Part shown: one piece after another, positions 7,980-22,336 of the stretch
Position numbering within the stretch: the stretch's first letter is position 1
How the letters are laid out: each line of letters begins with the position of its first letter
NCBI GenBank assembly: GCA_050173015.1
Contig: JBFXLE010000028.1
Span: 1 to 48,240 of the forward strand
DNA: 48,240 bases
Direction of reading: 5' to 3'
From: Calditrichaceae bacterium
Lineage (GTDB): Bacteria; Calditrichota; Calditrichia; Calditrichales; JBFXGD01
The notes under the pieces: generated by a model
The model's database searches: none
Seen by the model: only the letters and a program-made list of their open reading frames with translations
What the model was told of the DNA's origin: nothing
Program-made: the position numbers and the translations under genes

Positions 7980-9020
7980 ATGTTAAATCTGCGTTCGCAA
8001 CTGCGGTTATTATCAGAAAAAATTACCGGAAAAGAAAGAATTGTCATCGGTATTCATGGGTTGAACAACAAACCCCCCAGAGAATTACTCCATTTATGGT
8101 GGAAACAGGCCATTCAGGAGGGGCTGGCCAGGATCGGTCACCATGAAGAATTATTCACTCTGGAAATCGCGTACTGGGCAAATCTTCTCCATCCCGAACC
8201 GCTAAATCCCAATATAAAAGACGCGAAGAATCTTCTCTATATCGAAGCGCCGTATGTGCGTGGAAATCCGGATAGCGTAAAAGTCAAGCCAAATCTTAAA
8301 AAGAAGAGAATGCTGGATAAAATAGAGCGAAGACTCGATGAAATGTTCTTTGATGAAGACAGTTTTCTGAATTATGATTTTATTTCTGATCTGATTATTC
8401 GGAATATGTTTAAGGATCTTGATATTTATTACAACAGAGACTGTCCCGTCAAAACAAATTTTGGTTTATGCGCCCGTGAAGCAATAAGAATAGAGCTGGC
8501 TGATTTGCTTATCAGGCATCGGAATAAAAAAATTCTTTTGATCGCTCATTCTATGGGCTCCATAATCGCGTATGATGTTTTGACCCAGGTTGTTCCGGAT
8601 ATCCAAATCGATACTATGATCACCATTGGCTCGCCGCTGGGATTGCCTTCTATACAAAAAAAGATATTCGAAGAGCAAGGTAAAGAATACAGAGTGGAAA
8701 AACAGGTGTCTACACCGGAAAATATTCAAAAAAACTGGTATAATTTTTCTGATTTGGATGACAAGGTAGCCATTAATTATAATCTCGCCGATGATTTCAA
8801 AAAGAACAGCAGGGATGTCGGTCCGCAGGATTTTATCGTCGTCAATGACTATATATATAATGACGAGAAAAATAATCATAAATCATACGGTTATCTGCGA
8901 ACGCCTGAAGTCGCGAACGAGATTTATAGATTCCTACGGCCTGAAAAAACTACCTTCGCGGAGACGGTCAGAACAAATTTTAAAGAAATACTTAAGACAT
9001 TCAGCGAAACAAAAAAATAA
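7980..9020 (+). CDS. Alpha/beta-hydrolase fold protein (lipase-like)
   Basis: GIHG oxyanion loop, nucleophile elbow IAHSMGS, ITIGSPL, candidate Asp in DDKVA and His in NHKSYGYL. Confidence 0.8.
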   Translation: MLNLRSQLRLLSEKITGKERIVIGIHGLNNKPPRELLHLWWKQAIQEGLARIGHHEELFTLEIAYWANLLHPEPLNPNIKDAKNLLYIEAPYVRGNPDSVKVKPNLKKKRMLDKIERRLDEMFFDEDSFLNYDFISDLIIRNMFKDLDIYYNRDCPVKTNFGLCAREAIRIELADLLIRHRNKKILLIAHSMGSIIAYDVLTQVVPDIQIDTMITIGSPLGLPSIQKKIFEEQGKEYRVEKQVSTPENIQKNWYNFSDLDDKVAINYNLADDFKKNSRDVGPQDFIVVNDYIYNDEKNNHKSYGYLRTPEVANEIYRFLRPEKTTFAETVRTNFKEILKTFSETKK

Positions 9021-9057
9021 TCCGTGTATGCAGTTAAATTTGTCAGATAAGGGCCGA

Positions 9058-10119
9058 ATGGGAAAAAAAATTGCCGTATTAATCATTGTAACGCTTCAAG
9101 TTTTTGCGGCCGGCTGTGGACGGGACACGGGTCTCAGCAGAAAGGATTCAGTTGTCCAGGTTAGAGGGGTCCCTGTATTTAACCTGCCGCTGTCCGCAGA
9201 ATTGGCCGGTGATGATACTGAGATTTCAGGTCTTGCTTGGTACAATAATTACCTCATTATTCTTCCACAGTATCCAAAACGGTTTCCAAGTGAAGGTGAC
9301 GGAGCGATTTTCGCTATTCCGAAGGCCGAAATATTGGAACGGTTGGAATCAGGTGACAACAAACCGCTGGAGGCGATAAAAATTCCGGTTTTTGGGCAGG
9401 GGCTTAATAAAAAAATTATTGGCTTTGAAGGATTTGAAGCAATAGCATTCAGGGATAGTACGGCATATTTGACGATAGAGAGCAGAGAAAACAGGAAAAT
9501 GAAAGGACAAATTGTCGCGGGGGTCATGAAATCCGATCTCAGCGGGCTTTATATCGAATCAAACAGCCTTAAAGAGATACCGTCCGATGTGAATCTTCGC
9601 AATATGGCGTTTGAATCACTGGTTATCACGAATGACGGGGTACTGGCGATATATGAGGCGAACGGCATCAATGTGAATCATTTGCCGCGGGCGGTTTTGT
9701 TTGATTTTTCACTAAATCTAAAATCCCGAATTACTTTCCCCGCGGTTGAATACAGAATCACGGACGCCACGCCTACCGATTCAGACAATTGTTTCTGGGT
9801 TATAAATTATTTTTTCCCCGGTGATAAGAATCTGTTAAGGCCGCCGAGAAACAGTTTTCCCCAAAGACATGGTGAAAACAGATCTGATTTCGCGAATTTA
9901 GCGGTAGAAAGGATCATTGAACTGCAATACAGTGATTCTAAAGTTTCAGCGACCAATCGAGAGGCGATAAGTCTAATGCCGGCGTCCGGCGGCGATTCGC
10001 GGAACTGGGAGGGTATTGTTATATTAGAAAACAAGGGCTTTATCATGGCTACAGATAAATTCCCGAAAACTATTCTGGCGTTTATTCCCTTCGATAACAG
10101 CCAAAACCACGGGAATTAA
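9058..10119 (+). CDS. Lipoprotein, probable beta-propeller (phytase-like/SdiA-regulated-like)
   Basis: ATG 9058 gives MGKKIAVLIIVTLQVFAAGC (lipobox); repeated EISGLAW / FEAIAF / FESLVI / WEGIVI blade motifs. The ORF-track start at 8791 overlaps the upstream gene. Confidence 0.65.
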   Translation: MGKKIAVLIIVTLQVFAAGCGRDTGLSRKDSVVQVRGVPVFNLPLSAELAGDDTEISGLAWYNNYLIILPQYPKRFPSEGDGAIFAIPKAEILERLESGDNKPLEAIKIPVFGQGLNKKIIGFEGFEAIAFRDSTAYLTIESRENRKMKGQIVAGVMKSDLSGLYIESNSLKEIPSDVNLRNMAFESLVITNDGVLAIYEANGINVNHLPRAVLFDFSLNLKSRITFPAVEYRITDATPTDSDNCFWVINYFFPGDKNLLRPPRNSFPQRHGENRSDFANLAVERIIELQYSDSKVSATNREAISLMPASGGDSRNWEGIVILENKGFIMATDKFPKTILAFIPFDNSQNHGN

Positions 10120-10421
10120 GAGGACAGATAGCCCCATCTAAAATGCCGTTCTAATTCTTCCACATAAATAGATGTCCTCCGTTAAATTAAATATAACATA
10201 AATTATATTATCATTTTTTCCGCAAGTCCATTTAGTTATATTTTCAGGTAAACTAATAAGAAAAGTGAAGCGACAAACTAAAAATCGCTTTAAATTGCTG
10301 ATTGTCAAATACATAAAAAATTAAATAGTTTTCAAATTGTAGATAATTTTTGCTGTTTCAAAGTAATTGTTATGATTCTCGGGTAGATTAATTTTTTACA
10401 AATCAATTTAGGGAGATTCAA

Positions 10422-11015
10422 ATGAATATCATTGAGAGAGTAAAAAGAATATTGATGACACCTGCAACGGAGTGGGAAATTATCAAGGCGGAGCAGGCCT
10501 CTGTATCGGGTTTGTTCTCAAATTATGCTGTTATCTTAGCGGCCATACCGGCGGCGGCGGGTTTTATCGGTTTTAGTTTTTTTGGTATTTCATCCGGTTA
10601 TGGTTCATTTAAATTTTCTATTGGAACAACCTTAACCTGGGCGGTTGTTTCATATATCATGTCATTGATTGGCGTGTTTGTAGTGGGCTATGTGATAGAT
10701 TTTTTAGCTCCAAATTTCGGCTCAACAAAAGATCTTGTATCATCCATGAAAGTGGCGGTTTACGCGTACACCGCGGCATGGGTCGGCGGAATCTTCAATC
10801 TGATTCCTTCACTCGCGATTGTATCTGCCCTCGCCGGAATATATTCACTCGTTCTTTTATACAAGGGAATCGAAAGTATTAAAATGCCGCCTGCAAATAA
10901 ACTTGTCAGTTATTTCGTGGTGACTCTCCTGATTGCCATTGTTATTTTCTTTATTACAGGCGCTCTGTTGTCCCCGATCCTGATGAAGGGGAATGTAATG
11001 TACGGAACACTTTAA
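10422..11015 (+). CDS. Yip1-family membrane protein
   Basis: IIERVKRILMTPATEWEIIKAE, five TM helices, LAPNFG, YAYTAAWVGGIF, YSLVLLYKG; RBS GGGAG. Confidence 0.85.
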   Translation: MNIIERVKRILMTPATEWEIIKAEQASVSGLFSNYAVILAAIPAAAGFIGFSFFGISSGYGSFKFSIGTTLTWAVVSYIMSLIGVFVVGYVIDFLAPNFGSTKDLVSSMKVAVYAYTAAWVGGIFNLIPSLAIVSALAGIYSLVLLYKGIESIKMPPANKLVSYFVVTLLIAIVIFFITGALLSPILMKGNVMYGTL

Positions 11016-11029
11016 GTTCTGAATATGCC

Positions 11030-11064
11030 TAACTTCTGAAAGGCCAGGGATGGCTCAGAAGTTA
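11030..11064. terminator. Hairpin between convergent genes (probable bidirectional terminator)
   Basis: TAACTTCTGA(11030-39)/TCAGAAGTTA(11055-64) 10-bp stem, 3-nt bulge, GCCA/TGGC stem, GGGA tetraloop; overlaps the stop codon of the minus-strand gene. Confidence 0.5.
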
Positions 11065-11957
11065 TAAACAAAATCCACCCAGGGAATTCCCGGGAATAAC
11101 GCGTCTTCTCCAAGCACATTAAAAAAACCAAGATCGAAACTCATTGATTCACCGAAAAATCGTAATCCATACGAAATCAGAGGATTATCAACACCGGGAA
11201 ATATCCAGTTTTCACTTACAAAGGCAACCCGTCGAGCAAAACGGTTTTCCACGCCGATCATAAAAACCGGTTCGTTGGCAACATCACCTGAAGCAAATCC
11301 GTATCCAAGCCCGATAGAAATACTGCGGTCCGCGCTGCCATAAGTGCCGACACCATAGAGAATTCCGAATGTACCAAAATCATCTTCGTCCGGAATTTTT
11401 ATGATCAACGCGCCCGCCGCCAGATTAATATCATCAGACTGAATAAGACCGATTTTTGGTGTAATGAAGAATAACTGGTCATTCATATTCACGCCGGGAA
11501 AAATAGAAAAACCGCCGCCGATTGTCAGCCGGTCGGTCAAGCCATAGGCAATCCCGGGGAAAAAGATATAATAATCGGAAAAATATCCTTTACCCTTTTC
11601 CAGCATCCTTCCTGTCGGCGCGAAATAAAGTCTGGTATAATTCGGATTTGGAAACCAATAATTGCCTCCCCTGATAGATTTTGCGGGAACCTCATCTATT
11701 TTTTTAATACGGGAAATTTTGAGCGAGATATTTCCCATTTCTGTTTGAAACAGAATCATATCATCCATAATGTCTATGATTCTGCCGATGAGAGTGGACC
11801 CGTCCATAGTAGTGATCATCTGAACGGTTGAAGAATCCGGAATCTGTAATTGGTAAATGACTTTCTTCTCCTGCCCGTAGCCTGTTAATGTAAAAAACAT
11901 CACAAATAACAGTGAAATCGCGGGCGCGATTCCCTTGAGTAAAGAGATAGTTCTCAT
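11055..11957 (-). CDS. Putative outer-membrane protein (small N-terminal domain plus beta-barrel)
   Basis: Start ATG 11957 after GAGGT; signal peptide; TRLYFAPTGRML.KG.GY motif; beta-strands; C-terminal WVDFVYNF. Confidence 0.6.
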   Translation of the reverse strand: MRTISLLKGIAPAISLLFVMFFTLTGYGQEKKVIYQLQIPDSSTVQMITTMDGSTLIGRIIDIMDDMILFQTEMGNISLKISRIKKIDEVPAKSIRGGNYWFPNPNYTRLYFAPTGRMLEKGKGYFSDYYIFFPGIAYGLTDRLTIGGGFSIFPGVNMNDQLFFITPKIGLIQSDDINLAAGALIIKIPDEDDFGTFGILYGVGTYGSADRSISIGLGYGFASGDVANEPVFMIGVENRFARRVAFVSENWIFPGVDNPLISYGLRFFGESMSFDLGFFNVLGEDALFPGIPWVDFVYNF

Positions 11958-11995
11958 TTTGACCTCACAAATAAAATGCAATATAATATTTTACA

Positions 11996-12955
11996 CTATG
12001 CGCGGCTGATTAAATAGACCGTATATACTACATAAATGACCAGAAAAAGAACCGCTTCCCAGCGGTCAAGAGTACGTTTTTTTCCGGTAAACATCGTAAA
12101 GAAGAGTAAGAAGGATGCCGATACTAAGACCATCAAATCCAGATTCATCGCTGAATTGAAGGGTAACGGACGAATGAGAGCGGATACGGCAAGAATGAAA
12201 AAGATATTGAAGATATTTGAGCCAAGAATATTTCCCATCGCAATATCAGACTGTCCTTTGTGAGCAGCGACAGCGGAAGTAAACAGTTCCGGCAGCGAAG
12301 TTCCTATGGCGACGATTGTCAAGCCGATAATGCGGTCACTAACATCAAAATACCGGGCAATGTCAACAGAATTATTCACAACAAATTGTCCGCCAAAAAA
12401 CAAACCTCCCAGGCCCAGTAAAATATACAGAACCATTTTGACCGTATTCATTTCAGTGAATTTTTCCGCGTCATCAGTTTCGACTTTTGAGATCGCAAAA
12501 TTGTAAATTAAAAAAATGATAAAAAAGAATAGAAGTACAATCCCCTCACTCCTCGACATTAAGTTTTCCGATTGATCAAAAATAAAATCATTGCACATAA
12601 ATATTAAGACAAGAGAACCGAGGAGGGCAAAGGGGATTTCACGCCAGACCGTATTCCGGTGGGTTGAAATCGGATTGATCAAGCCTGCAATTCCCAAAAT
12701 CAACAAAATGTTTACAATATTGCTGCCGATTATGTTTCCAAAGCTCAGGTCCGTGTTTCCCCGAAGGGAAGCAATAATATTAACCACTAATTCGGGAGAA
12801 GATGTGCCAAAAGCAACGATGGTCAGACCGATAACCATAGGTGAAATAGAAAAACGAACCGCCAGGGAGGCAGAACCTTCGACAAGGAGATCAGCGCCTT
12901 TGATTAAAAGTAGGAAACCGAGCAGTAATAACGCAGAATTCAAAAATAACGACAT
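11996..12955 (-). CDS. yrbG: Ca2+/cation antiporter (CaCA superfamily, YrbG-like)
   Basis: Two alpha-repeats: GLTIVAFGTSSPEL...GNIIGSNIVN and GLTIVAIGTSLPEL...GNILGSNIFN. Confidence 0.92.
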   Translation of the reverse strand: MSLFLNSALLLLGFLLLIKGADLLVEGSASLAVRFSISPMVIGLTIVAFGTSSPELVVNIIASLRGNTDLSFGNIIGSNIVNILLILGIAGLINPISTHRNTVWREIPFALLGSLVLIFMCNDFIFDQSENLMSRSEGIVLLFFFIIFLIYNFAISKVETDDAEKFTEMNTVKMVLYILLGLGGLFFGGQFVVNNSVDIARYFDVSDRIIGLTIVAIGTSLPELFTSAVAAHKGQSDIAMGNILGSNIFNIFFILAVSALIRPLPFNSAMNLDLMVLVSASFLLFFTMFTGKKRTLDRWEAVLFLVIYVVYTVYLISRA

Positions 12956-13044
12956 TTTATGGTTTCCTTGTTCTAATATTACCGTTTATCTTCATAGCAA
13001 TGTTTCATGTGTCACAACAAAGATCGCGAATATTCCTGACAGAA

Positions 13045-13932
13045 TTATTTTGTTTTTTTGCCGTTTTGGTGAGGGTCGACATCCTCATTGTTAATGATCG
13101 CTACGGGAAAAGGTTTTGTTTCTGATCCGGTGTATAAAGAAATGTGAGGGAACGGAATTTCAATGCCTTCGTCATCAAAACGATTCTTAATTTCTTCAAG
13201 AATGCTGTTTTTTAATTTGAGAAAATCCGCTTTCACTGCCCACACGGCAAAGAGAAAATCAATGGATGAATCTCCGAAACCGGAAAAGATAATCAAAGGT
13301 TCAGGTTCCTGAAGGCAAAGCGGATTCTTAGCGGCTATATCCATTAAGACCGATTTAACCTTACCGACATCCTCTTTATAAGCAACCCCGATATTTACAT
13401 CCAGCCGGCGAATAGGAAAGCGGGTAACGTTGGTTACCTCACTTTTTATAATAGTTTCATTCGGAATTCGAATAAATTTGTTGTCAAAGGTTCTGAGTTT
13501 GATGGATAATACATCAATGGAGAGTACCTGTCCGGTGGTGCCGCCGACAGTGATGACATCATCAACCATAAATGGTTTTTCGGCGATCAGAAAAAGACCG
13601 CTGATGATATTTGAAACAGAAGTCTGAGAGGCGAATCCAAGCGCGATTCCAACAATTCCGGCGGCGCCAAGGAGATGAGATAACTTAAATCCAAAATCAT
13701 TTAAAATGGAAAAAATAATAATGATGACGCCTGAATACATAACCAGCTTACCGAAAATCATCCCCTGCTGGGCGCTAAGTTTTTTAGTGAAATATTTTTT
13801 GATGCTTTTGCTTAACATAAAAGTCAGCGGCAGGCCTATAAAAATAAGCGCAAGAAACCGAATGATGGCGGAAGTTTTTTCTTCCGTAAAAAAATGGCTA
13901 AAGTCAAGCCCGAGTGAATGTAAAAATTCCAT
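13045..13932 (-). CDS. Small-conductance mechanosensitive channel (MscS family), third copy
   Basis: AAGIVGIALGFASQTSVSNIISGL, EKPF..DDVI, IRIPNE, FSGFGDSSIDF, GIEIPFP. Confidence 0.92.
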   Translation of the reverse strand: MEFLHSLGLDFSHFFTEEKTSAIIRFLALIFIGLPLTFMLSKSIKKYFTKKLSAQQGMIFGKLVMYSGVIIIIFSILNDFGFKLSHLLGAAGIVGIALGFASQTSVSNIISGLFLIAEKPFMVDDVITVGGTTGQVLSIDVLSIKLRTFDNKFIRIPNETIIKSEVTNVTRFPIRRLDVNIGVAYKEDVGKVKSVLMDIAAKNPLCLQEPEPLIIFSGFGDSSIDFLFAVWAVKADFLKLKNSILEEIKNRFDDEGIEIPFPHISLYTGSETKPFPVAIINNEDVDPHQNGKKTK

Positions 13933-13943
13933 ATCAGTCTCTC

Positions 13944-14744
13944 TTAATTTGTGAAAATTCCCAGTCCGGGAAGATCCTTCAACGTTGAAAATGTTTTGAT
14001 CGAAAGACCTTTTTTAGATGTAATCCGGGCTGTATTAATGAGTTTTGCTGATTTTGAGTCAACCGGCGGTCCCTGCGGAAAATCAATCTGGCTAATTTCC
14101 TGTTCACCCTTATAAATGATGTTTGTATCACCGGCCCAGAGCTGGTTGTTTTCCATATACAAAGATAAATTGGTAACCCGAAGAGCTAATTTTTCTACCA
14201 GCAAATCCTCATGAGATTTATTAGATAAAAATATGGGGCAAATGGCCATATAGGGGCGATCGGGATCAATTTCAATCTGACGCCGCACCCCTGAAGAAAC
14301 CCAATAGCATAGTTCGCCTTCAAGAAAAGTTCCGAACCATGTATTTGACAATATGATCGTAGGTATGTCTAAAAGCGGGTAGGAATGTCTCCCGGAAATA
14401 CCAAGCTGAATCCAGACTGGAATGCGGACATAAATCTGAGCATGACTGTTTTTAACTATCCGGAACGGAGATTCAGGTTTTATGATGACTGGCCGGTCAG
14501 GCATTTGAGGTTTTAACTGCAGCCTGGTTATTTCTTTTTTGACCGCCCAGCGAGACCAGTTTGTTTTTTCGCTGCTGATTTTCTTGCTGATATTATTATC
14601 TTTCCGGCTATGAAAATATTCATATCTGGCCATGAGTTCGTTTCTGGAACACATAAACGAAATTTTAAGATTTCCAATGGAGTAATCTTGTGGATCTGTG
14701 GAAATAGTTTCGTAATCCTTCCAAGTGAATATCGCTTTACGCAT
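13944..14744 (-). CDS. DUF432 domain protein
   Basis: PDRPVIIKPESPF.I, IYVRIPVWI, LSNTWFG...EGELCYW pattern; family assigned from recollection. Confidence 0.7.
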   Translation of the reverse strand: MRKAIFTWKDYETISTDPQDYSIGNLKISFMCSRNELMARYEYFHSRKDNNISKKISSEKTNWSRWAVKKEITRLQLKPQMPDRPVIIKPESPFRIVKNSHAQIYVRIPVWIQLGISGRHSYPLLDIPTIILSNTWFGTFLEGELCYWVSSGVRRQIEIDPDRPYMAICPIFLSNKSHEDLLVEKLALRVTNLSLYMENNQLWAGDTNIIYKGEQEISQIDFPQGPPVDSKSAKLINTARITSKKGLSIKTFSTLKDLPGLGIFTN

Positions 14745-14850
14745 CCGCTATCCTAACATCTTATTCCAAAAACAATATTGTCTGTAATTTAGTAATAAAG
14801 TGATTATAGTACTAAGAATAATCTGTAAAAAGATAAAGAACAATTAAATA

Positions 14851-15744
14851 TTAATTTCCTGAATCTCTTCGAAGCTCCTTGATTGGAAGCGGTTCAGCGC
14901 TGCGAAGATGTAAATCTCTTTGTGGAAAAGGTATTTCTATTGAATTTTCCCTGAACTTACGGACGATCGCGCAATTAATGTCAGAGCGGATTATATGGTG
15001 TCTTTTGGTGTCAAGAATCCAGACTCGTAGAAGCATGTTCCAAGATGAGTCGCCAAAACTTGAAAGCAGAACATCCGGTTTGGGGTTTTTTAAAACATCC
15101 GGGTGGCCGCCGGCGACTTCTTCCAGGCTATTCAGCACGGCATCCAGATCAGATCCGTAGGACACCCCGACTTCAATTACCAGTCTGATTTTTGGGTCTC
15201 CGTGTGTCCAGTTTATGACATTCGAAGATACAAATTCAGAATTCGGTACTATAATAGTGATATTGTTAAGCGAACGAATTGTCGTTGACCGGAAATTAAT
15301 GGCTATCACATCACCCTCTGTATCACCAACCGTCACACGGTCACCGATTTTAATCGGTTGCTCAAAGAGCAGAATGAGCCCGGCCACAAAATTGGATGTC
15401 ACATTCTGCAGACCGAATCCGATACCGACGGAAAGCAATCCAAAAATGACAGCTAACCCGCCGAGATTGATTCCGACAAACTGAAACGCGACAATTGTAC
15501 CGACCACCATAACGGAGTAATGAGTAATCCTGAGCATCATGAATCTGGTATTTGTTTCAAGTTGAAGTCTGGCAAAAACTCTTTCCAGCAACATCCGGTT
15601 AATGATACGGGACAAAATAAAAAACATGATCATCATTATAATGAACATCAGTATTGAAAACATGGTGACCGGAGTCTGATTCAGCTCAAAGAGCGTAACA
15701 TTAAGAATTTTGGAAATAACATGCGAAATTGCCTGAAGATCCAT
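14851..15744 (-). CDS. MscS-family mechanosensitive channel, second copy
   Basis: GLLSVGIGFGLQNVTSNFVAGLILLFEQPIKIGDRV, IIVPNSEF, VGVSYGSD, FGDSS, IEIPFPQRDLHL. Confidence 0.93.
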   Translation of the reverse strand: MDLQAISHVISKILNVTLFELNQTPVTMFSILMFIIMMIMFFILSRIINRMLLERVFARLQLETNTRFMMLRITHYSVMVVGTIVAFQFVGINLGGLAVIFGLLSVGIGFGLQNVTSNFVAGLILLFEQPIKIGDRVTVGDTEGDVIAINFRSTTIRSLNNITIIVPNSEFVSSNVINWTHGDPKIRLVIEVGVSYGSDLDAVLNSLEEVAGGHPDVLKNPKPDVLLSSFGDSSWNMLLRVWILDTKRHHIIRSDINCAIVRKFRENSIEIPFPQRDLHLRSAEPLPIKELRRDSGN

Positions 15745-15814
15745 TGTTTATCCTGTTCGAAAGTTGTTAGAAACGTTATAAATTATAATCACAGATCAAC
15801 ATTTAAAATTCCTA

Positions 15815-16774
15815 TTAGTTTTTGCTGTTGATAAACGACATTTCTTCCGCAGTGATCAGTTTATGATTCAGAAACTCAGAAATGACAATTTCAGTCATCT
15901 CGCTGGCAAATGAAAATTCATAGCGAATGTCATTTACATAAGCCTTGAGACGCATTTTTAACAATGACCGTCCTTCATGTATTTCATTCTTGATAATAAT
16001 CGCGATCGGTTTGTTCAGATAAATAAATTTGGATACCGCGGCAGCGCGATAAGCGATTTTTTTAGCCCGGATAAGATCGATATCAGGCGGCAGAAAAAAC
16101 TCAGCGACGACCTGACAGTTGGATTCCCCCGAGTTCGAATTTGAAACGGACTGATTCACGATTTCACTGTTTGGGATGGATACAAGCGAATCGTCCGCCG
16201 TAACAATCCGCACGGTTCGCAGACCGATTTGAACCACTTCACCATAGTGTGATCCGACCTCTATCTTGTCACCGGCCTGAAAGGGACGATCAAACAAAAT
16301 CATAATACCCCCAAAGATATTTTTAAGGATATCCTGCGAAGCGAAGCCGACCGCTATGCCGGCCGAAGCGGTGACGGCGATCAGGGTTTCGATGGGAGGC
16401 GCGATAATTCCCGCGATGATGATATAGAGTACAAATGTCCACCCGACAATTCGTAATATGGGGACAAGTCCTTTGATAGTAAGTCTCAGATTGCTGAAAC
16501 GTTCCGCAAGAGCTTCAAGAACACGGGTCAGATATTTAATGGAAATAAACGCGATAAGAAAAATCAGAAAGGACCAGATTATTTTCCCGAAAGATATGGA
16601 CCAGGGAAGTTTTGGGCCGGAATCACCAATCTTTTCCCGGATATTGCTTATGGCCGAGACAGAATCCTCCTGAGCTATGGTATCATTCACCGCTTGTCCG
16701 TAAGAAGGCTGGTAATCAATAATCCCAAAGATGACAACCAAAATGAAAAGTGCAGATAAAAATGATCTGTTCAT
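15815..16774 (-). CDS. MscS-family mechanosensitive channel, first copy (N-terminal signal/extension)
   Basis: AGIAVGFASQDILKNIFGGI..FDRPFQAGDKI, GEVVQIGLRTVRI, SIPNS; RBS AAGGA overlaps the upstream stop codon. Confidence 0.9.
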   Translation of the reverse strand: MNRSFLSALFILVVIFGIIDYQPSYGQAVNDTIAQEDSVSAISNIREKIGDSGPKLPWSISFGKIIWSFLIFLIAFISIKYLTRVLEALAERFSNLRLTIKGLVPILRIVGWTFVLYIIIAGIIAPPIETLIAVTASAGIAVGFASQDILKNIFGGIMILFDRPFQAGDKIEVGSHYGEVVQIGLRTVRIVTADDSLVSIPNSEIVNQSVSNSNSGESNCQVVAEFFLPPDIDLIRAKKIAYRAAAVSKFIYLNKPIAIIIKNEIHEGRSLLKMRLKAYVNDIRYEFSFASEMTEIVISEFLNHKLITAEEMSFINSKN

Positions 16775-16783
16775 ATTAAATCC

Positions 16784-19700
16784 TTATTGGATAATATTCT
16801 TTGCTTTTAAAATTCTCATCAACGGGCGATATAAAAATGGATGTATCTGGTATCCGCGTTCTTTCTTTATAATGAGACCAAGGTTTGCCATTCGTGTAAG
16901 CTGCAATAAACTATGCTGACTATTTTGATGAAAAATAAGCGCGTGGATTTTTGGAGAGAGCGTTTCATGCTGGAAGATGGCTCCCAGAGTAAAAAGGTCT
17001 TCTGCCGGGAAACCATACAGAAATGAATAATCGACATCAATATCAGCGGTCAGTATAATTTTATCTGATAATATTTCTTTGATGGAACGCAGCCAGTACA
17101 ACATAGCAACCGTAACATTTCCGGACGAAAGATCATTTAATTGATTAAAAAACAGTGTCTTGAGAAAGTTCTGCCGGTCTTTATCCGTCGAAAGTTTTTT
17201 AAATTTCCGGTTGGTTCTTATACTTTCGTTATCTTCGAATTCAAGATTATATCCACTCACGCGGTGACGTTTTAAGATAATTAACTGCATTTCAGACATT
17301 GGTAGAGCGCCCAGGAAGATCTCCTTATTGAAGAATCTTGAAATGCTGATGACCTTGTCCAGATAGTTCCAGCTGTAAAGTGTGCAGGAGACAAGCCAGA
17401 AAATTTTACCGTGTGTCCGTGAAACGAGAAGAAGAAACCGTTCGATGCTTTCAAAACCATCCACGACACGGATAAATAAGTTCTGTATGTTCTCAACTAT
17501 GCAGATATGCTTTTCTTTGCTGGCGAGAATCCATTCTTCAAACTCATCCAGATCCTCAATGTGCCCGGCATTAAACGCGTTTTTAAGAAGAACAAGTAAA
17601 TCCTGATTTGTGTATGATTTATCGAGGATGTCGAGTAAAATCATGCCATGATTCTGGAAATATTTTTTCTCCGCGAACTTCATCAGGGTCGTTCTGCCGC
17701 TGCCTCTCTCACCGATCAGAACCGTAGAAGCATACTGACCGTTTTGCCAGTCATTAAATTCACTTTCAATCATCGCCATTTCACTATTTCGGCCGGCGTA
17801 AAATCGTTCATCCTCGAGTGGTTCGAACCGAAAAAGTCTCTGATAGACATAAGGTAGTTTTGAAACCTGGGATTGGGTGTCTGAAAGAAACACACTTAAT
17901 TGGTCTTCGATGACTGTTTCCGGCTTAACGAGTCCGGTCATTTTTCTGAACTTTGAATACTCCCCCCAGATCTTCTTAAAATTGGTGGTCACAAAAACAA
18001 AAATGACCGGTAGGATCGACTTTACAAAAGTGATTGCTTTGTGCCGGTATTCCCTGATCCTTTCTTCCGTTTTGGCTCTTGCTAACCGGATTTTCAATTC
18101 AATTATTTTTTCGTTGTCGGCAAGATTTTGTATTTCATGTTCAAATTCTAGAGAACGCTCAAAAAGCTGCAGGTTGCATTCTTCCGCGATATTGACGCTT
18201 TGAGAAAGCAAATCGTTAAATAGTTTCTCAGCTCTTTCAAATCCGCCGAGCACTACTTTTCGCGCCTCGTTGAAATTTGACTCTGAGTCTTCCTGATTAA
18301 TGAGATTTAATCCGGCCTCAAGATTAAATTCAACTACCTGGTCGATTTCAGAGATGGTACGTGAAATACTCTCCAGATTTTCTCTTATCGTATCAATAAA
18401 TTTATTATATTTGCCCGAAAACCGAGACAGGATTTCGGTATCAACGAGCTCTTTGAGAGGTATATCGTCAATTTTTGATTTTGGCGGTGTATTTTCATCA
18501 TCACGATATACAAAAATAACATGTTCTTCAGAAAGAATTCCGCGAGCCTTATCGAATTCGGACGAATAGTTCTCCAGTATTTGTATAATCTGCGTCTGAA
18601 CTATCATATCCAGTACATGCGGTAGTTTTACATATCTTAACTCTTTGATGAGATCGCGGTTTTCAGTGGTTATTGCCTGTTTAAGCGCTTTGGCTGATTT
18701 CGGGGCGCGTAATTTTTCAGCGGATTTTGAAAGCAGATCAATCACTTCTTTAATGGATGGCTGCATCTTTTTTTCAATCTGGTCATAGAGCCGGCGAATT
18801 GTACTCTTGTAGATCTGACTGAGTTTTAGCTGCAGAATAGAAAGTTCCAGACTGTTTTGCCAGTCTTCCCGAATTCCCATAAAATGTAAATCCCATGCTT
18901 CCCGAATTTTCTTAAAGCTTTTTTCTAGTGAAGCCCACTGTTTGTTGAAACCGTTTTTTTCAAATGTTTTGACAGGGTGAAGAAAAGTGCCTGCCAGCTC
19001 CCAGTTGCTGTGAAACCGAATTAACACATTTTCAAAATTTTGACTAAACCGGCTTTGTGTTTCTGATTTCAGTACAGTTGAATCAATCTCAGAAATCCGT
19101 AATTCTTCCAGGATCTCATCAAAAATCGTTACAGGAATTCTAAGTTCTTTCTTTTCCTCTTCGGTGTATGATTTCAATTTTTCGAGCGTGATTCCTTTTT
19201 CCTTAAGTCTTTCAACACCGGATTGAAGTCCGACAAACTGCGAAGACGCGGATACCAGAAAAATCTGCCATTCCTTTAAAATATATTCCACCACCGGACG
19301 CTCAACATGATCGGTGAGAAAATAATAAAGATCGAATTTTCTGGTGTGAACCGGCAGTTCTTTAGGGAGTTTTCTGACTAATTTCCTGAAGAAGTTTTTG
19401 ATTTTCAGATTGAACTTTAATGACCTGCGCTTTAATCTTTTATTGAATTTCCAGATACGGTCAGGCAAGGAATCGGTGCTAACCGGTTTCCAGAATTCTT
19501 CAGTCACCGGAATTTCAATTTCCTGGGGAAATTCAGTAAGCAGAAGCTGAAATTTTTCAAGCCAGGGCAATACAAACTCACGTTGCGACTGGTCTTTGCC
19601 GCTGTAGGAAAGGCTTTCAACCCAGGTAATAAGTTCGATAAAATTTAATTCCAGAATTTTCCATGCATCCTCAATGGAAAGTTCAAAATTTTTATCAGCC

Positions 19701-19849
19701 TTGATTTGTTCTGATATCGAATTGACGATGCGATTAAATTCCTTCAAGCGTCCGTTATGGTATTTATTCCAGTCTAAGGATGCTTCAAGGATGGAACTGA
19801 GTGCGGCTTCTTCGAATCGTTTCACTATCAATTTAGGATCTTGATTCAT
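16784..19849 (-). CDS. Large helical protein with C-terminal STAND-like/AAA P-loop domain and winged helix
   Basis: About 600 aa helical N-terminus; FYAGRNSE upstream of Walker A-like GERGSGRTT; Walker B-like ICIVENIQ; C-terminal wH-like LTRMANLGLI...YQIHPFL. Confidence 0.75.
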   Translation of the reverse strand: MNQDPKLIVKRFEEAALSSILEASLDWNKYHNGRLKEFNRIVNSISEQIKADKNFELSIEDAWKILELNFIELITWVESLSYSGKDQSQREFVLPWLEKFQLLLTEFPQEIEIPVTEEFWKPVSTDSLPDRIWKFNKRLKRRSLKFNLKIKNFFRKLVRKLPKELPVHTRKFDLYYFLTDHVERPVVEYILKEWQIFLVSASSQFVGLQSGVERLKEKGITLEKLKSYTEEEKKELRIPVTIFDEILEELRISEIDSTVLKSETQSRFSQNFENVLIRFHSNWELAGTFLHPVKTFEKNGFNKQWASLEKSFKKIREAWDLHFMGIREDWQNSLELSILQLKLSQIYKSTIRRLYDQIEKKMQPSIKEVIDLLSKSAEKLRAPKSAKALKQAITTENRDLIKELRYVKLPHVLDMIVQTQIIQILENYSSEFDKARGILSEEHVIFVYRDDENTPPKSKIDDIPLKELVDTEILSRFSGKYNKFIDTIRENLESISRTISEIDQVVEFNLEAGLNLINQEDSESNFNEARKVVLGGFERAEKLFNDLLSQSVNIAEECNLQLFERSLEFEHEIQNLADNEKIIELKIRLARAKTEERIREYRHKAITFVKSILPVIFVFVTTNFKKIWGEYSKFRKMTGLVKPETVIEDQLSVFLSDTQSQVSKLPYVYQRLFRFEPLEDERFYAGRNSEMAMIESEFNDWQNGQYASTVLIGERGSGRTTLMKFAEKKYFQNHGMILLDILDKSYTNQDLLVLLKNAFNAGHIEDLDEFEEWILASKEKHICIVENIQNLFIRVVDGFESIERFLLLVSRTHGKIFWLVSCTLYSWNYLDKVISISRFFNKEIFLGALPMSEMQLIILKRHRVSGYNLEFEDNESIRTNRKFKKLSTDKDRQNFLKTLFFNQLNDLSSGNVTVAMLYWLRSIKEILSDKIILTADIDVDYSFLYGFPAEDLFTLGAIFQHETLSPKIHALIFHQNSQHSLLQLTRMANLGLIIKKERGYQIHPFLYRPLMRILKAKNIIQ

Positions 19850-19929: not shown

Positions 19930-19957
19930 ATTATACAATAAATTACCTATTACGCAA
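19930..19957 (-). promoter_or_regulatory. Sigma70-type promoter for the NTPase-MscS cluster
   Basis: Minus strand TTGCGT-16nt-TATAAT followed by GC-rich CACCCCGCC, about 80 nt upstream of ATG 19849. Confidence 0.55.
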
Positions 19958-20503: not shown

Positions 20504-22336
20504 TTATTTGAATAAATTTTTTAATTTATCTTTTACCTGATCACCAAGCTTACTTTTTTCTTTCTCGATCTCTTCCTTTTTGTCATCGATGAGATTTAAC
20601 TTGTCTGAAAGCAGGTCCTCATATTTTGTCAATTGCGCCTTTAATTGTTCTTCCTTGCCGGAAATCAGATTATTCAGTTCTTCGCGACGTTTTCCAACCT
20701 CCTGGTCAACTTTTGCCTTAATTTTGGCGCGGGCTTCTTCTGCATCCTTACTGATTACGGATTTCAAACCGGACACAAATTGATCATCAAGATTTGAATT
20801 GAGAGAAAATTTCAGGTTGTCCTTTTCGCCGCTGATCCTGGCGATGAAATCCACAGTAGATGTTCCTTTAATAATGTCCCGGACGATTGACTCAAGTTTG
20901 TTTTTTGAGTCTTGCGTATCCTTTTGTTCAAATTGCAGCTCTGATCCGACAAATTTAATATTCCCGGTTATCTTATCCCCGGAAATATCAAAATTTGATT
21001 CGACACTGCCTCTGCCCTTTTTAACTTTGTTGGGCAAAAATTGTGAATCGGACAACTTCATATTATTGAGTGAAAATCCTTTATATAGCAGATTAATATG
21101 CTCAGATGGTTTTTCACCGAGATAGTCCAGTTCACCGGTGATTGACAACCCGCGTCCTTTGTTATCAAATCCTTTGATATCCATATCCGTTGTTTTGCCG
21201 ATGATCCGCTGATTGGAAACGATATTACGAATTTCACCTTTTATCTGAATACCGTCATTTGTTTCACCGCTTAGATTAATCATCCTGATCCAAAAATCCG
21301 GCCGGGCGTTTTTATTGTAAAAATAAATATCCTGGCCTTTTAACCGGGGAGGTTTTGCTTTTTCCGGTTTATCGGACTGTAGTTTGGCCGCATAGGTCCG
21401 GGCTTTTGAGACATAACCCAAATATTGATTCACCTGATTGACAACCGTTTTGCCAAATAGAAATTTTCCGATGTTCTGAGAATTGATCTCAGGAAGTTTA
21501 GCCATAGAAACGGCTTTTTTGTAGTCATCCTGAATCCAGTCATCCACCATCGCCGTACTGTTTCTCGCGGATTTCAAATCATCGGATAATTGTTGTTTAC
21601 TGTTCTTTAATATATTGGAAAGGGAATCGGCTGATTTTTTTATCTGATTGATATCGTTTAAAGATGACTGAAAAGACTGAACAGAATTTATTTTTTTTAT
21701 ATCGAGACCTTTGACCTGCCTTTCGATTCTCTTGGTGTCAGCCTCAATATCCATCCCGGACAATTGAGCTTGCCAGCCGTCATATTTTTGAGTCAGGCTT
21801 TTTTGCAGAGAATCGATTTTGGAAGGAGAATCAATTTTGAGCAAAGCCATCACGCTGTCAACGTTTATTTTTTGTTTATAGGCCGACATGTTGAACGCCG
21901 GCGCCTCGCCGATTTGTTTCCCCAGATTGTCAATCGTTTTACCTAAAAATCCTTTCTCGGCGGAAGTGGTTTTCTTTTTTATGATTTTCCCGTCGGTTTC
22001 ACGGTCGGTATTCATCCGAAAGCCGGTTAGCTGAATGTTTTCGATGATAATCTTTTTGCTGAACAATGGCCAAAATTCCATTTTAAACTCGGTATGACCG
22101 GTCTCGATAATATTTTTCATGGTGTTTTTTGTATCCGATATCTGCAATCTGTCCCAACTCAACCGGGGACCAAACAGAGAAAAATCGATTCCGTCAAATT
22201 CCACTTTGGCGCCATTTAACGAACTGCCCGTTTCCTCAAGCCGTGATTCCAGCCAGGCATCGGTTAAAAGCAGAGAGATACCAAAAATTACCGCCGCGAT
22301 GACAAGAAGTACAATGATTCCTTTTTTCCGAAACAT
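20504..22336 (-). CDS. TIGR03545-family protein (AsmA-like N-terminus)
   Basis: N-terminal TM anchor, GAKVEF...PLFSKKIIIENIQLTG, helical insert, PPRLKGQDIYF..PDFWIR, SNLDDQF, coiled-coil C-terminus; paired with TIGR03546. Confidence 0.8.
   Translation of the reverse strand: MFRKKGIIVLLVIAAVIFGISLLLTDAWLESRLEETGSSLNGAKVEFDGIDFSLFGPRLSWDRLQISDTKNTMKNIIETGHTEFKMEFWPLFSKKIIIENIQLTGFRMNTDRETDGKIIKKKTTSAEKGFLGKTIDNLGKQIGEAPAFNMSAYKQKINVDSVMALLKIDSPSKIDSLQKSLTQKYDGWQAQLSGMDIEADTKRIERQVKGLDIKKINSVQSFQSSLNDINQIKKSADSLSNILKNSKQQLSDDLKSARNSTAMVDDWIQDDYKKAVSMAKLPEINSQNIGKFLFGKTVVNQVNQYLGYVSKARTYAAKLQSDKPEKAKPPRLKGQDIYFYNKNARPDFWIRMINLSGETNDGIQIKGEIRNIVSNQRIIGKTTDMDIKGFDNKGRGLSITGELDYLGEKPSEHINLLYKGFSLNNMKLSDSQFLPNKVKKGRGSVESNFDISGDKITGNIKFVGSELQFEQKDTQDSKNKLESIVRDIIKGTSTVDFIARISGEKDNLKFSLNSNLDDQFVSGLKSVISKDAEEARAKIKAKVDQEVGKRREELNNLISGKEEQLKAQLTKYEDLLSDKLNLIDDKKEEIEKEKSKLGDQVKDKLKNLFK

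Follow-up and report, generated by a model that had tools for sequence, protein, structure and literature searches.

The window analysed here, a stretch of 48,240 nucleotides from a Calditrichaceae bacterium, contains a block of seven co-oriented genes in which two of the three genes coding for channels of the MscS family directly follow genes for proteins of other families. This arrangement raises the questions of whether the block encodes a single system and of what a protein encoded next to such a channel might do. To our knowledge, soluble partners of this kind are not known for MscS channels, and we found no paper describing the pairing of either partner, here termed 'NTPase' and DUF432 protein, with its respective channel MscS1 or MscS3. 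We find that the block is composed of two separately conserved gene pairs and three local additions, and does not constitute one conserved seven-gene system. On balance, we favor its assignment as a lineage-specific ion-handling cluster built around two independent partner-channel modules, whose partners would gate the channels for turgor and ion homeostasis and not for phage defence.

Organization of the seven-gene block

The seven co-oriented genes described in an earlier note on this DNA were all recovered as minus-strand open reading frames. Gene 1 (16784..19849, (-)) codes for the 1021-residue NTPase and is followed by gene 2 (15815..16774, (-)), encoding the NTPase-partnered MscS subtype MscS1 (319 residues; PF00924 at 80.3 bits, cut-off 20.2), and gene 3 (14851..15744, (-)), encoding the canonical stand-alone MscS-family channel MscS2 (297 residues; PF00924 at 87 bits, with PF21082 and PF21088 also above their cut-offs). 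Gene 4 (13944..14744, (-)) encodes the all-β DUF432 protein (266 residues; PF04254 at 31.5 bits, cut-off 21) and gene 5 (13045..13932, (-)) its partnered channel MscS3 (295 residues; PF00924 at 74.7 bits, cut-off 20.2, and PF21082 at 61.4 bits). The mutual identity of the three channels amounts to only 20-23%. Gene 6 (11996..12955, (-)) specifies a YrbG-type Ca2+/Na+ antiporter of the CaCA family (319 residues; TIGR00367 at 251.4 bits, cut-off 179.65; PF01699 in two matched stretches, E 2.2e-72). Sequence profiles thus bear out the previous labels of the channels, the DUF432 protein and the antiporter. For gene 7 (11055..11981, (-)), which had been labelled an outer-membrane barrel, we found neither a Pfam family nor a solved relative; its hydrophobic N-terminal segment (residues 3-28) and its C-terminus ending on Phe (...VYNF) mark an exported protein that is possibly such a barrel.

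The gaps between consecutive genes measure 9, 70, 106, 11, 89 and 14 nt. The first five agree with the earlier description, whereas the last is 14 nt from an upstream TTG start and reaches the reported 38 nt only from the ATG at 11957, which is the probable start of gene 7. The tight coupling within both pairs is evident from the sequence: the stop codon TAA of the NTPase gene abuts a GGA, with the ATG of MscS1 located 9 nt on, and the TAA of the DUF432 gene abuts GAGAG, with the ATG of MscS3 located 11 nt on. A scan of the region detected no terminator-like sites in the three longer gaps of the block. The motif TTGCGT-16-TATAAT (19930..19957, (-)), in the 239-nt gap 5' of gene 1, is present as described, but its role as the one promoter of the block is unproven because its -35 element matches TTGACA in only three of six positions and promoter-like sites in the region are found at chance level (28 compared to 27.1 ± 4.8 in shuffled sequences). 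The same scan yielded a second candidate, TTCATA-16-TATAAT, at 20007-19980.

Two conserved partner-channel pairs

The earlier note had postulated two pairs of a channel and a soluble partner and proposed a survey of gene neighbourhoods, in which both adjacencies turned out to be conserved. Matches to the NTPase were found in 12 of 41 related genomes. At ten loci from such genomes, blastp identified an MscS gene directly after the NTPase homologue in nine, and the open reading frame downstream of the tenth was assigned to MscS by Pfam (PF00924, 32 bits); in this set, MscS1 is conserved at 63-71% identity compared to 30-35% for the NTPase. A wider survey covered 80 loci of a species-level collection of genomes. 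In 78 of them, the NTPase gene is immediately followed by an MscS1-type gene of the same orientation, and the two remaining loci both stop at a contig end; the median gap is 5 nt, and 72 of the 78 gaps do not exceed 20 nt. The pair is distributed over Calditrichota, KSB1, Gemmatimonadota, Aminicenantes, Nitrospirota, Ignavibacteria, Marinimicrobia and many Bacteroidota, including cultured Fulvivirga, Aquimarina and Polaribacter, and is also found in a spirochaete and a gammaproteobacterial metagenome-assembled genome. Across phyla, MscS1 retains 47-65% identity. Its best solved relative is the MscS structure 7dlu_A (E 1.4e-16), which aligns over the transmembrane helices and the cage, and its N-terminus is signal-like. 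A C-terminal strand segment present in MscS2 and MscS3 is missing in all nine NTPase-partnered channels that were aligned.

The second pair is similarly well conserved. In a search of 86 genomes, MscS3 directly follows DUF432 in all 13 DUF432-carrying genomes of the phylum, and among the 67 metagenome loci with at least 250 nt of sequence downstream of DUF432, counted as informative, 65 show the same order. MscS3 shares 48-68% identity with its counterparts adjoining DUF432 in 40 other loci. The AF2 model of the DUF432 protein (pLDDT 87.7, pTM 0.85) contains 21 strands and the sequence has no transmembrane-like window; no solved fold in the PDB was matched by Foldseek at E≤0.001, and the best VIA-align hit is found at Z 5.7. 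A complex of MscS3 with the DUF432 protein was predicted, with scores of 0.56, 0.57 and 0.55 compared to 0.11 for the best of three controls, a partner pLDDT of 74 and at least 67% of contacts shared between runs. Of 80 solved complexes and 110 mismatched pairs, 58 and two, respectively, reach the applied mark; at scores of 0.60 or under, only seven of the 80 solved complexes do so, together with both mismatches. The prediction is a weak pass that lends weak support to a complex of the two proteins.

An AAA+-like partner and its possible role

Gene 1 belongs to a large family without a name, which counts 4269 representative clusters at a threshold of E≤1e-3 and 2086 at one of E≤1e-30, and in which the Atlas cluster names are limited to 'hypothetical' or 'ATP-binding protein'. 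Its P-loop matches in Pfam are all below threshold (AAA_22 25.4 bits, cut-off 27; AAA_16 19.8 bits, cut-off 32.6) and its sequence match to ORC4, with an E-value of 0.17, is likewise sub-threshold. In the AF2 model (mean pLDDT 86.5, pTM 0.65), the secondary structure defines a long-helix arm comprising residues 1-637 (17939..19849, (-)), which terminates in a basic amphipathic helix (approximately residues 600-637) and whose structural matches are confined to designed helical bundles. A hydrophobic window within this helix (604-624) obtains a transmembrane-like score in only two of 47 relatives, and the protein is probably either soluble or associated peripherally with the membrane. Based on fold comparison, residues 648-1021 (16787..17908, (-)) comprise an AAA+ core, a lid and a winged helix resembling ORC/Cdc6 proteins, with archaeal ORC2/Cdc6 (1w5t_A, E 6.6e-8) as best match in Foldseek and Cdc6 (7jgr_G, Z 16.5, rmsd 3.2, 247 residues aligned) in VIA-align, where TnsC, BrxC, RFC and NLR/Apaf-1 score at Z 12-15. 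The P-loop GERGSGRTT (residues 713-721; 17687..17713, (-)) carries an arginine at the position of the Walker A lysine. Among the 47 relatives, this position 719 is occupied by Lys in 25, Arg in eight and other residues in 14, whereas Gly 716 and Gly 718 are kept throughout; the Walker B motif contains a glutamate in 46 and an asparagine as next residue in 38. Judged from these alignments, the catalytic motifs of the protein are eroded, and genuine ATPase activity might be possible in part of the family because the P-loop glycines and the threonine are kept and 25 of the 47 relatives retain the Walker A lysine. We have abandoned the previous classification as STAND-like NTPase, since the fold is closest to Cdc6/ORC, the catalytic residues are eroded and a repeat-type sensor domain was found neither in a Pfam search nor in the AF2 model.

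A hint towards function is provided by a 1713-residue protein encoded in the window's own genome, whose N-terminal part is an AA_permease/SLC12 transporter (E 7.5e-47) and whose residues 758-1710 match the profile of the whole NTPase (hhalign probability 99.9, E 2e-35, 920 columns). In all five loci encoding such a fusion, the gene is followed, with an overlap of 4-16 nt, by a gene for an MscS-like protein of 239-252 residues, which was confirmed by Pfam in the three cases examined. The fusion is in line with the ion or osmotic role suggested in the earlier note. In the mechanism that we propose, each partner would bind to the cytoplasmic face of its own channel and set the time of its opening. 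The AAA+-like partner might act as nucleotide-binding switch or scaffold instead of a motor, and could couple the release of solutes via MscS1 to the ionic or energetic state of the cell. Turgor and ion homeostasis would be the expected outcome. MscS1 itself is a highly conserved subtype without the C-terminal strand that seals the canonical cytoplasmic cage at its base, and MscS3 is a canonical-looking channel beside a cytoplasmic all-β DUF432 protein.

The strict adjacency would also be compatible with a factor for channel assembly or, given the winged helix at the C-terminus of the NTPase, with a regulator of transcription. In the former case, the partner would be an AAA+-type chaperone devoted to the assembly, insertion or quality control of its channel instead of a gating regulator. 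The short median gap would suit stoichiometric co-production, the fold is that of an AAA+ protein, and without their C-terminal strand the partnered channels might depend on assistance to assemble into stable heptamers. Nevertheless, we consider this explanation unlikely: the incomplete conservation of the Walker A lysine and the asparagine in place of the second acidic Walker B residue speak against a functional motor for unfolding or remodelling, the nearest folds are of the initiator or switch type and not classic-clade unfoldases, and the permanent fusion to a transporter is easier to reconcile with a regulator that stays in place than with a chaperone that acts transiently.

It is also quite improbable that the block forms one co-regulated seven-gene machine consisting of three, possibly heteromeric, channels, two partners, an antiporter and an outer-membrane protein, as implied when it was introduced as a single system. 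Besides the common orientation, the short gaps and the lack of terminator-like sites, such a machine would account for the preservation of the full block in a same-genus genome (86-94% protein identity) and a near-identical metagenome contig (L116; DUF432 match 96% identical), the only two places where it was found. It would also agree with a tendency of the modules to cluster in Calditrichota, as in the arrangements NTPase-MscS1-DUF432-MscS3 in genome G002, NTPase-MscS1-MscS2-CaCA in G028 and MscS2-DUF432-MscS3-CaCA in G008. Beyond close relatives, however, the block breaks up. DUF432 was not found in any of five other genomes containing the first pair, G008 contains the second pair and no NTPase match, G015 carries both on separate contigs, and DUF432-MscS3 is found near the NTPase pair in only three of 80 loci. 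The low identity between the three channels equally argues against a common machine. The remaining genes are lineage-specific neighbours of the two modules: outside Calditrichota-type loci no MscS2-type gene adjoins the NTPase pair, a CaCA gene is located near DUF432 in four of 80 metagenome loci and counterparts of gene 7 are confined to near-identical copies in the same-genus contig and L116. An NTPase-like open reading frame is convergent to DUF432-MscS3 in three metagenome loci, and the modules are thus perhaps less independent than concluded.

A DNA-binding regulator, namely an ORC/Cdc6-like ATPase with winged helix acting on the transcription of the neighbouring channel genes, appears very unlikely. 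The best structural matches are indeed DNA-binding proteins with a C-terminal winged helix and gene 1 heads the cluster, but such regulators are rarely encoded 9 nt upstream of their target with a ribosome-binding site overlapping their own stop codon, a helical arm of about 640 residues is unparalleled among them, the homologue carrying a 12-TM-type transporter would be anchored in the membrane, and the same winged helix is shared by STAND and other AAA+ proteins that do not bind DNA.

The surroundings of the genes bear on the membrane-depolarising defence that the earlier note had considered. The window flanks encode housekeeping proteins (thioredoxin, UDG, a topoisomerase IV/gyrase A-type protein, GDPD and Yip1), and 136 scanned neighbours (68 upstream and 68 downstream) are of housekeeping character as well: the recurrent families are further MscS genes (10 and 5, respectively), AstE/AspA (8), histidine kinases (7) and SNF transporters (3), with no recurrent defence or mobile-element family. 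An anti-phage or abortive-infection module, in which infection is sensed by a STAND-like ATPase that then depolarises the cell by opening its MscS channel, is in our view the least probable explanation, for despite the compact and patchily distributed two-gene module, the resemblance of the C-terminal part of gene 1 to ZAR1 (Z 13.6), BrxC (Z 14.3), Avs3 (Z 12.7) and Avs5 (Z 12.2) in VIA-align and a Pycsar effector domain in two of the 68 downstream neighbours, none of the seven proteins matched a PADLOC model, sensor repeats are absent, this genome also encodes the entire module as a fusion with a cation-chloride cotransporter and the conservation of the channel across phyla would be unusual for fast-evolving defence effectors.

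Comparison with known channels and switch proteins

MscS channels such as E. coli MscS (YggB) and YnaI are described as self-sufficient tension-gated homoheptamers. All three channels of the block carry the MscS β-domain above the Pfam cut-off, MscS1 aligns with the homoheptameric structure 7dlu_A, and MscS2 and MscS3 contain PF21082, but two of the subtypes have an obligate genomic partner and the NTPase-partnered one lacks the C-terminal strand segment. MscK (KefA) and MscM (YjeP) also combine an MscS core with a large helical accessory region, which modulates gating and is fused, N-terminal and periplasmic or membrane-embedded. MscS2 and MscS1 match the respective models partially, at 61-230 bits compared to an equivalog cut-off of 991, and MscK (7uw5_A) matches MscS1 with an E-value of 6.9e-15, whereas the accessory part here carries an AAA+ module and is encoded as a cytoplasmic protein of its own. 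With Orc1/Cdc6, TnsC, BrxC and STAND NTPases this protein shares the P-loop core, lid and winged helix, but it differs in its sub-threshold sequence matches, the replaced Walker A lysine, the predominant asparagine at the catalytic Walker B position, the N-terminal helical arm, the lack of a STAND-type repeat sensor and its constant association with a channel gene. A precedent for cytoplasmic nucleotide-binding control is provided by bCNG channels, in which an MscS homologue carries a fused cyclic-nucleotide-binding domain; a Pfam search found this domain in none of the seven proteins, and the nucleotide-binding module of the block is a P-loop of the AAA+ type located on a polypeptide distinct from the channel. 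In the Kef K+ efflux systems (KefC/KefF, KefB/KefG), ion release depends on a soluble cytoplasmic partner from the same operon, which might serve as functional analogy only, as the protein families are unrelated and the same search found no Kef, KTN/RCK or flavodoxin-like families in the block. Finally, the SLC12 proteins of animals are transporters that act in volume regulation and carry large cytoplasmic tails with regulatory function. The fused homologue in this genome resembles the SLC12/CCC family (NKCC, KCC and prokaryotic CCC) in its N-terminal transporter, while its tail consists of a helical arm and an AAA+ module and its gene is accompanied by one for a mini-MscS; gene 1 of the window is without the transporter part.

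Gene content of the channel block

All seven co-oriented genes proposed in the earlier note were found on the minus strand at the claimed coordinates. The block opens with a gene encoding a putative NTPase of 1021 aa (gene 1, 16784-19849), which is followed by MscS1 (15815-16774, 319 aa), MscS2 (14851-15744, 297 aa), DUF432 (13944-14744, 266 aa), MscS3 (13045-13932, 295 aa), an antiporter (gene 6, 11996-12955, 319 aa) and an exported protein (gene 7, 11055-11981), which comprises 308 aa if translated from a TTG and 300 aa from an ATG. The intergenic gaps amount, in order, to 9, 70, 106, 11, 89 and 14 nt, where the last value holds for a start at the TTG and becomes the previously given 38 nt for a start at the ATG at 11957. 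The tight coupling of the NTPase to MscS1 and of DUF432 to MscS3 is evident at both junctions, where a purine-rich stretch overlaps the stop codon. The motif TTGCGT-16-TATAAT is located at 19957-19930. Since promoter-like sites occur in the region at the frequency of shuffled sequences (28 compared to 27.1 ± 4.8, and thus without excess), it stays an assumption that the block has only one promoter and is transcribed as one unit. The longer gaps of the block contain no terminator-like sites, and the locus or part of it was detected in 12 DNA sequencing runs from six studies (17 runs were listed, none of them RNA).

The family labels assigned to the three channels, DUF432 and the antiporter are borne out by Pfam and NCBIfam scores. 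The MscS beta-domain PF00924 (cut-off 20.2 bits) is matched by MscS1, MscS2 and MscS3 with 80.3, 86.6 and 74.7 bits, and TM-like windows are found in all three proteins. The pore helices described by PF21088 (cut-off 23.1 bits) are recognized in MscS2 with 34.8 bits, the score of MscS3 (22.2 bits) being just under the threshold. In gene 6, PF01699 matches two stretches (E 2.2e-72) and the calcium/sodium antiporter model TIGR00367 is exceeded with 251.4 bits (cut-off 179.65), with the YrbG equivalog scoring 229.5 bits, under its cut-off of 432. Gene 4 contains DUF432 (PF04254, 31.5 bits, cut-off 21), to which 28 of its best 30 clusters in the protein cluster collection Atlas belong. Gene 7 carries a hydrophobic N-terminus and a terminal Phe, and has neither a Pfam family nor a solved relative; it may encode a beta-barrel of the outer membrane. 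The window's own genome contains seven MscS-family genes.

Two features outside the block were noted in passing. Just upstream resides a DUF748 (AsmA-like) protein of 610 aa (20504-22336, minus strand), and DUF748 or AsmA genes are found downstream of the NTPase-MscS1 pair in two of 68 other loci. On the other side, an ORF of 442 aa without Pfam family (8791-10119, plus strand) overlaps an alpha/beta-hydrolase-like ORF (7980-9020, plus strand) by 230 nt, and its true start is probably later than the first start codon as called.

An ORC/Cdc6-like protein paired with an MscS channel

The survey of gene neighbourhoods suggested in the earlier note reveals a close linkage between the NTPase and MscS channels. 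Homologues of about 1000 aa are found in 12 of 41 related genomes. In nine of ten fetched loci an MscS gene was identified directly downstream by blastp, and in the tenth (L021) the downstream ORF of 292 aa was recognized as MscS by Pfam (32 bits). A one-genome-per-species scan with a profile of five NTPase sequences yielded 98 relatives, for which 80 loci were kept. Among these, 78 contain an MscS1-type gene as next gene on the same strand, and in the remaining two (L032 and L064) the contig ends just past the NTPase gene. The gap between both genes has a median of 5 nt and does not exceed 20 nt in 72 of the 78 loci, although these values are approximate, since ORFs were called from their first start codon. 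One member of the pair is split into two pieces in L030 and L070. Going by the record titles, the pair is distributed over Calditrichota, KSB1, Gemmatimonadota, Aminicenantes, Nitrospirota, Ignavibacteria, Marinimicrobia and many Bacteroidota, the latter including the cultured Fulvivirga, Aquimarina, Polaribacter, Catalinimonas and Cesiribacter, and it was also encountered in one spirochaete, one gammaproteobacterial MAG and one MAG labelled as archaeon. The NTPase family itself is large: searching 1.84 billion proteins with a 47-sequence profile identified 4269 representative clusters at E≤1e-3, a number that falls to 2086 at E≤1e-30. The names of its clusters in Atlas are confined to "hypothetical protein" or "ATP-binding protein".

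In eight loci of Fulvivirga type (L062, L068, L073, L074, L076, L078, L079 and L081), a gene of about 315 aa is located upstream of the NTPase at a distance of -8 to 22 nt. AstE/AspA-type deacylases account for eight of 68 upstream neighbours, and the upstream gene may constitute a third, lineage-specific member linked to osmolyte metabolism.

An AF2 model of gene 1 based on an alignment of 47 sequences (mean pLDDT 86.5, pTM 0.65) divides the protein into a region of long helices with few short strands (residues 1-637), a linker of low confidence (638-646) and a C-terminal part (648-1021). The latter displays the AAA+ architecture of ORC/Cdc6-like proteins, with a P-loop alpha/beta core and a helical lid ahead of the C-terminal winged helix. 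In structure comparisons, the C-terminal part matches 1w5t_A in Foldseek (E 6.6e-8) and finds its best VIA-align partner in the Cdc6/ORC protein 7jgr_G (Z 16.5, rmsd 3.2, 247 residues aligned), with residues 665-1018 matching 2qby_A at a Z of 15.4. Values of 12-15 were obtained for TnsC, BrxC, MuB, RFC and the STAND proteins ZAR1, Apaf-1 and Avs, and the core scores at 12-13.6 with NLR, Apaf-1 and Avs, below Cdc6/ORC, although the fold alone does not separate the clades. The Pfam families AAA_22 (25.4 bits, cut-off 27) and AAA_16 (19.8 bits, cut-off 32.6) are both sub-threshold; at E≤0.01 there is no Pfam match to NACHT or NB-ARC, and no Pfam repeat family indicative of a TPR, WD40 or LRR sensor was found in a protein that ends at its winged helix. 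The previous designation as STAND-like is therefore only loosely right, as the core fold is held in common yet neither a STAND domain match nor a repeat sensor is found. The helical arm matched only designed helical bundles at a Z of about 14, which is the noise level for helical proteins in VIA-align, and a profile search of solved sequences with gene 1 returned only apolipoprotein A-I (E 0.02) and ORC4 (E 0.17).

The nucleotide binding site shows a mixed pattern of conservation. The position of the Walker A lysine (719) is occupied by Lys in 25, by Arg in eight and by other residues in 14 of the 47 relatives, and the window protein, which carries an Arg, lacks the combination of an intact Walker A lysine and a Walker B catalytic acid. 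At the Walker B position (E786 in the window protein), Glu is found in 46 of 47 relatives and is followed by Asn in 38. The P-loop glycines are kept in all 47 relatives, the next Thr in 45, and the residues of an Arg-His pair in 47 and 45. Given these worn catalytic motifs combined with the retention of the P-loop glycines and the Thr, gene 1 would act as nucleotide-binding switch or scaffold and not as motor. The 14 relatives with neither Lys nor Arg at the Walker A position indicate that catalytic erosion varies by lineage; a Leu is found at this position in the homologues of loci L016 (genome G040) and L021 (genome G024). As a candidate for a membrane anchor we considered the sole hydrophobic window of the protein (604-624), which was rejected, since it is TM-like in only two of 47 relatives, the segment otherwise being a basic amphipathic helix.

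In the partner channel, residues 62-285 align with residues 23-240 of the solved MscS structure 7dlu_A (E 1.4e-16), covering TM helices and cage. MscS1 is a true MscS relative, yet of a distinct subtype. Its identity across phyla is 47-65%, compared to 30-35% for the NTPase in the same loci, and its N-terminus consists of a signal-like segment followed by a variable linker. The C-terminal domain PF21082 is recognized in MscS2 (58.6 bits) and MscS3 (61.4 bits), with no match in MscS1, which is the only one of the three to lack a full cage, being devoid of the last C-terminal strand segment. The same segment is absent in all nine aligned NTPase-partnered channels, which include two of MscS1 type, two partners of paralogous NTPases and five short MscS-like proteins described below. 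In canonical MscS channels, the last strand forms a small barrel that seals the bottom of the cytoplasmic cage. The presumably open cage base of MscS1 would offer a partner an evident place to dock.

On another contig of the same genome (C3, about 109332-115228; L196:3333-9229), an ORF of 1713 aa joins a transporter to a homologue spanning the full length of gene 1. An AA_permease/SLC12 transporter (E 7.5e-47) occupies its N-terminal part, residues 583-663 match SLC12, and the stretch from residue 758 to 1710 covers the NTPase profile in full (920 aligned columns, hhalign probability 99.9, E 2e-35). The end of this ORF is overlapped by a gene encoding a mini-MscS protein of 252 aa, beyond which follow an ORF of 312 aa without family and a PAS histidine kinase. 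In all five fusion loci examined, which stem from five genomes, an MscS-like gene of 239-252 aa is next with an overlap of 4-16 nt, and the MscS identity was confirmed by Pfam in the three loci tested. The complete module of arm and AAA+ domain thus occurs also as cytoplasmic tail of a protein of the cation-chloride-cotransporter type. Together with the adjoining MscS gene, this fusion places the module at the membrane among ion transporters, which argues for a role in ion and volume homeostasis.

DUF432 and its association with MscS3

A comparable linkage, again in line with what the earlier note had proposed, is found for DUF432. Of 86 genomes searched in the phylum, 13 contain PF04254, and in all 13 an MscS3-type gene is located directly downstream. 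A metagenome scan with a profile of 12 DUF432 sequences identified 80 loci, 13 of which were left out because a downstream gene would not fit on them. The other 67 offer at least 250 nt beyond the DUF432 ORF, which is adjoined by an MscS3-type ORF in 65 of them; the two exceptions, L191 and L192, are short contigs of low coverage where the matches are fragmentary. Eight of the 65 pairs overlap by at least 100 nt as called, which we have taken to result from over-extended starts; two of these (L172 and L189) show weak MscS scores of 16-17 bits. The DUF432 clusters in Atlas include Bdellovibrionota, Pseudomonadota and Methanobacteriota, and among archaea the family is also matched in Methanosarcina acetivorans.

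The DUF432 protein contains no TM-like window. Its AF2 model (pLDDT 87.7, pTM 0.85) is all-beta with 21 strands and finds no match in the PDB by Foldseek at E≤0.001 (the best being 0.07), the best VIA-align Z being 5.7 to beta-sandwich proteins. Within Atlas, a TM score of 0.85 was obtained for DUF432 itself only and all others are at or below 0.36. The predicted complex of MscS3 and DUF432 scores at 0.56, 0.57 and 0.55, compared to 0.11 for the best of three controls, with a partner pLDDT of 74 and an agreement between runs in at least 67% of contacts, amounting to a verdict of weak support. Of 80 solved complexes, 58 attained the mark applied, as did two of 110 mismatched pairs; at scores of 0.60 or lower, it was passed by only seven of the 80 solved complexes and by both mismatches. 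Combined with the strong prior from gene order, this weak prediction provides mild support for a binding of DUF432 to MscS3.

A channel island with a proposed role in ion homeostasis

The core proposal of two channel-partner pairs is upheld by comparative genomics (78/80 for the NTPase; 13/13 and 65/67 for DUF432). The proposal that all seven genes constitute one system was not sustained, as the full block is found only in a genome of the same genus, at 86-94% protein identity, and on the metagenome contig L116, its parts being separate elsewhere. DUF432 was not found in any of five diverse genomes containing the NTPase-MscS1 pair, genome G008 contains MscS2-DUF432-MscS3-CaCA with no match to the NTPase, both pairs reside on different contigs in G015, and DUF432-MscS3 is near NTPase-MscS1 in only three of 80 loci. 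Within Calditrichota, the pieces of the block tend to gather, as in the arrangements NTPase-MscS1-DUF432-MscS3 in G002, NTPase-MscS1-MscS2-CaCA in G028 and NTPase-MscS1-MscS2 in several genomes. With parts that are separate elsewhere and gather within this phylum, the block is a local "channel island" of genes with related physiology and not a fixed machine. Across phyla, the commonest neighbours of the NTPase-MscS1 pair are further MscS genes, which account for ten of 68 upstream neighbours (70 ORFs minus two NTPase fragments) and five of 68 downstream neighbours (72 ORFs minus the same-genus copy, an MscS1 fragment and two running off the locus).

In three metagenome loci (L167:3637-5559, L173:2848-3774 and L189:3608-6520), an NTPase-like ORF (phmmer 65-126 bits) is found on the opposite strand, convergent on DUF432-MscS3, which hints at a possible linkage of both pairs in further lineages. 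In the locus L024 of a Calditrichia MAG, a gene of the phosphate-selective-porin type (Porin_O_P, E 2.8e-10; 10186-11235) is located between MscS1 and DUF432-MscS3, the position that MscS2 holds in the window, and adds another outer-membrane protein to such a cluster.

A defence role, which had also been raised and to which a Pycsar effector domain in two of 68 downstream neighbours of NTPase-MscS1 would relate, was rejected as main reading and is very unlikely: none of the seven proteins matches the PADLOC-DB 2.0 library of anti-phage defence models from 2023 at E≤0.01, the flanks of the block encode housekeeping functions (thioredoxin, DUF748, DUF2062, uracil-DNA glycosylase, topoisomerase IV/gyrase A-type, Yip1-domain and glycerophosphodiester phosphodiesterase proteins), and neither these flanks nor 136 scanned neighbours contain recurrent defence or mobile-element families.

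For both pairs, our best inference is a mechanism in which each partner would dock on the cytoplasmic face of its channel and, once docked, would determine how it is gated, as a contribution to the control of ions and turgor. Extending this to the family, we tentatively propose a joint reading, in which as a whole we place limited confidence, where the channels of large bacterial MscS subfamilies would form devices of two components, together with a cytoplasmic subunit dedicated to them, instead of being autonomous tension valves. One partner would be a worn-down ORC/Cdc6-like AAA+ switch with a long helical arm placed on an open-bottomed cage, a module that is also hard-wired to cation-chloride cotransporters, and the other would be the all-beta DUF432, possibly of new fold. 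Such devices could act as valves gated by nucleotides or other ligands, which keep the uptake of salt and the release of solutes in balance, and the Calditrichaceae locus, combining both devices with a Ca2+/Na+ exchanger, might serve as an ion-homeostasis island.

In the literature searched, comprising titles and abstract openings without subscription journals and supplements, we found no description of either pairing of a partner with MscS, and "DUF432" is absent as whole word, matches at word starts being other DUFs with the same beginning. Within this scope, nothing was found on subfamilies of the MscS superfamily in relation to operons, and the matches listed contained nothing relevant on MscS in connection with an ATPase gene neighbourhood, an anti-phage role or an auxiliary subunit, nor on prokaryotic cation-chloride cotransporters in connection with mechanosensitive channels or AAA+ proteins. 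The pairing with MscS3 would provide DUF432 with a first functional context, and the existence of cultured carriers of the NTPase-MscS1 pair (Fulvivirga, Aquimarina and Polaribacter, among them Fulvivirga kasyanovii JCM 16186 and Aquimarina muelleri DSM 19832) makes the idea testable.

MscS is the textbook example of a channel for which membrane tension is the sole gating stimulus. The finding that two unrelated partner families are tied to particular MscS subtypes across phyla suggests an extra regulatory layer, not known to have been studied by the field, in which nucleotide state, ionic state or another ligand would act on the channel. Transporters of the SLC12 type control cell volume in animals, and the fusion of the AAA+ module to a transporter of this type ties channel control to these volume-regulating proteins, thus offering a concrete hypothesis of how bacteria could coordinate salt uptake with emergency release.
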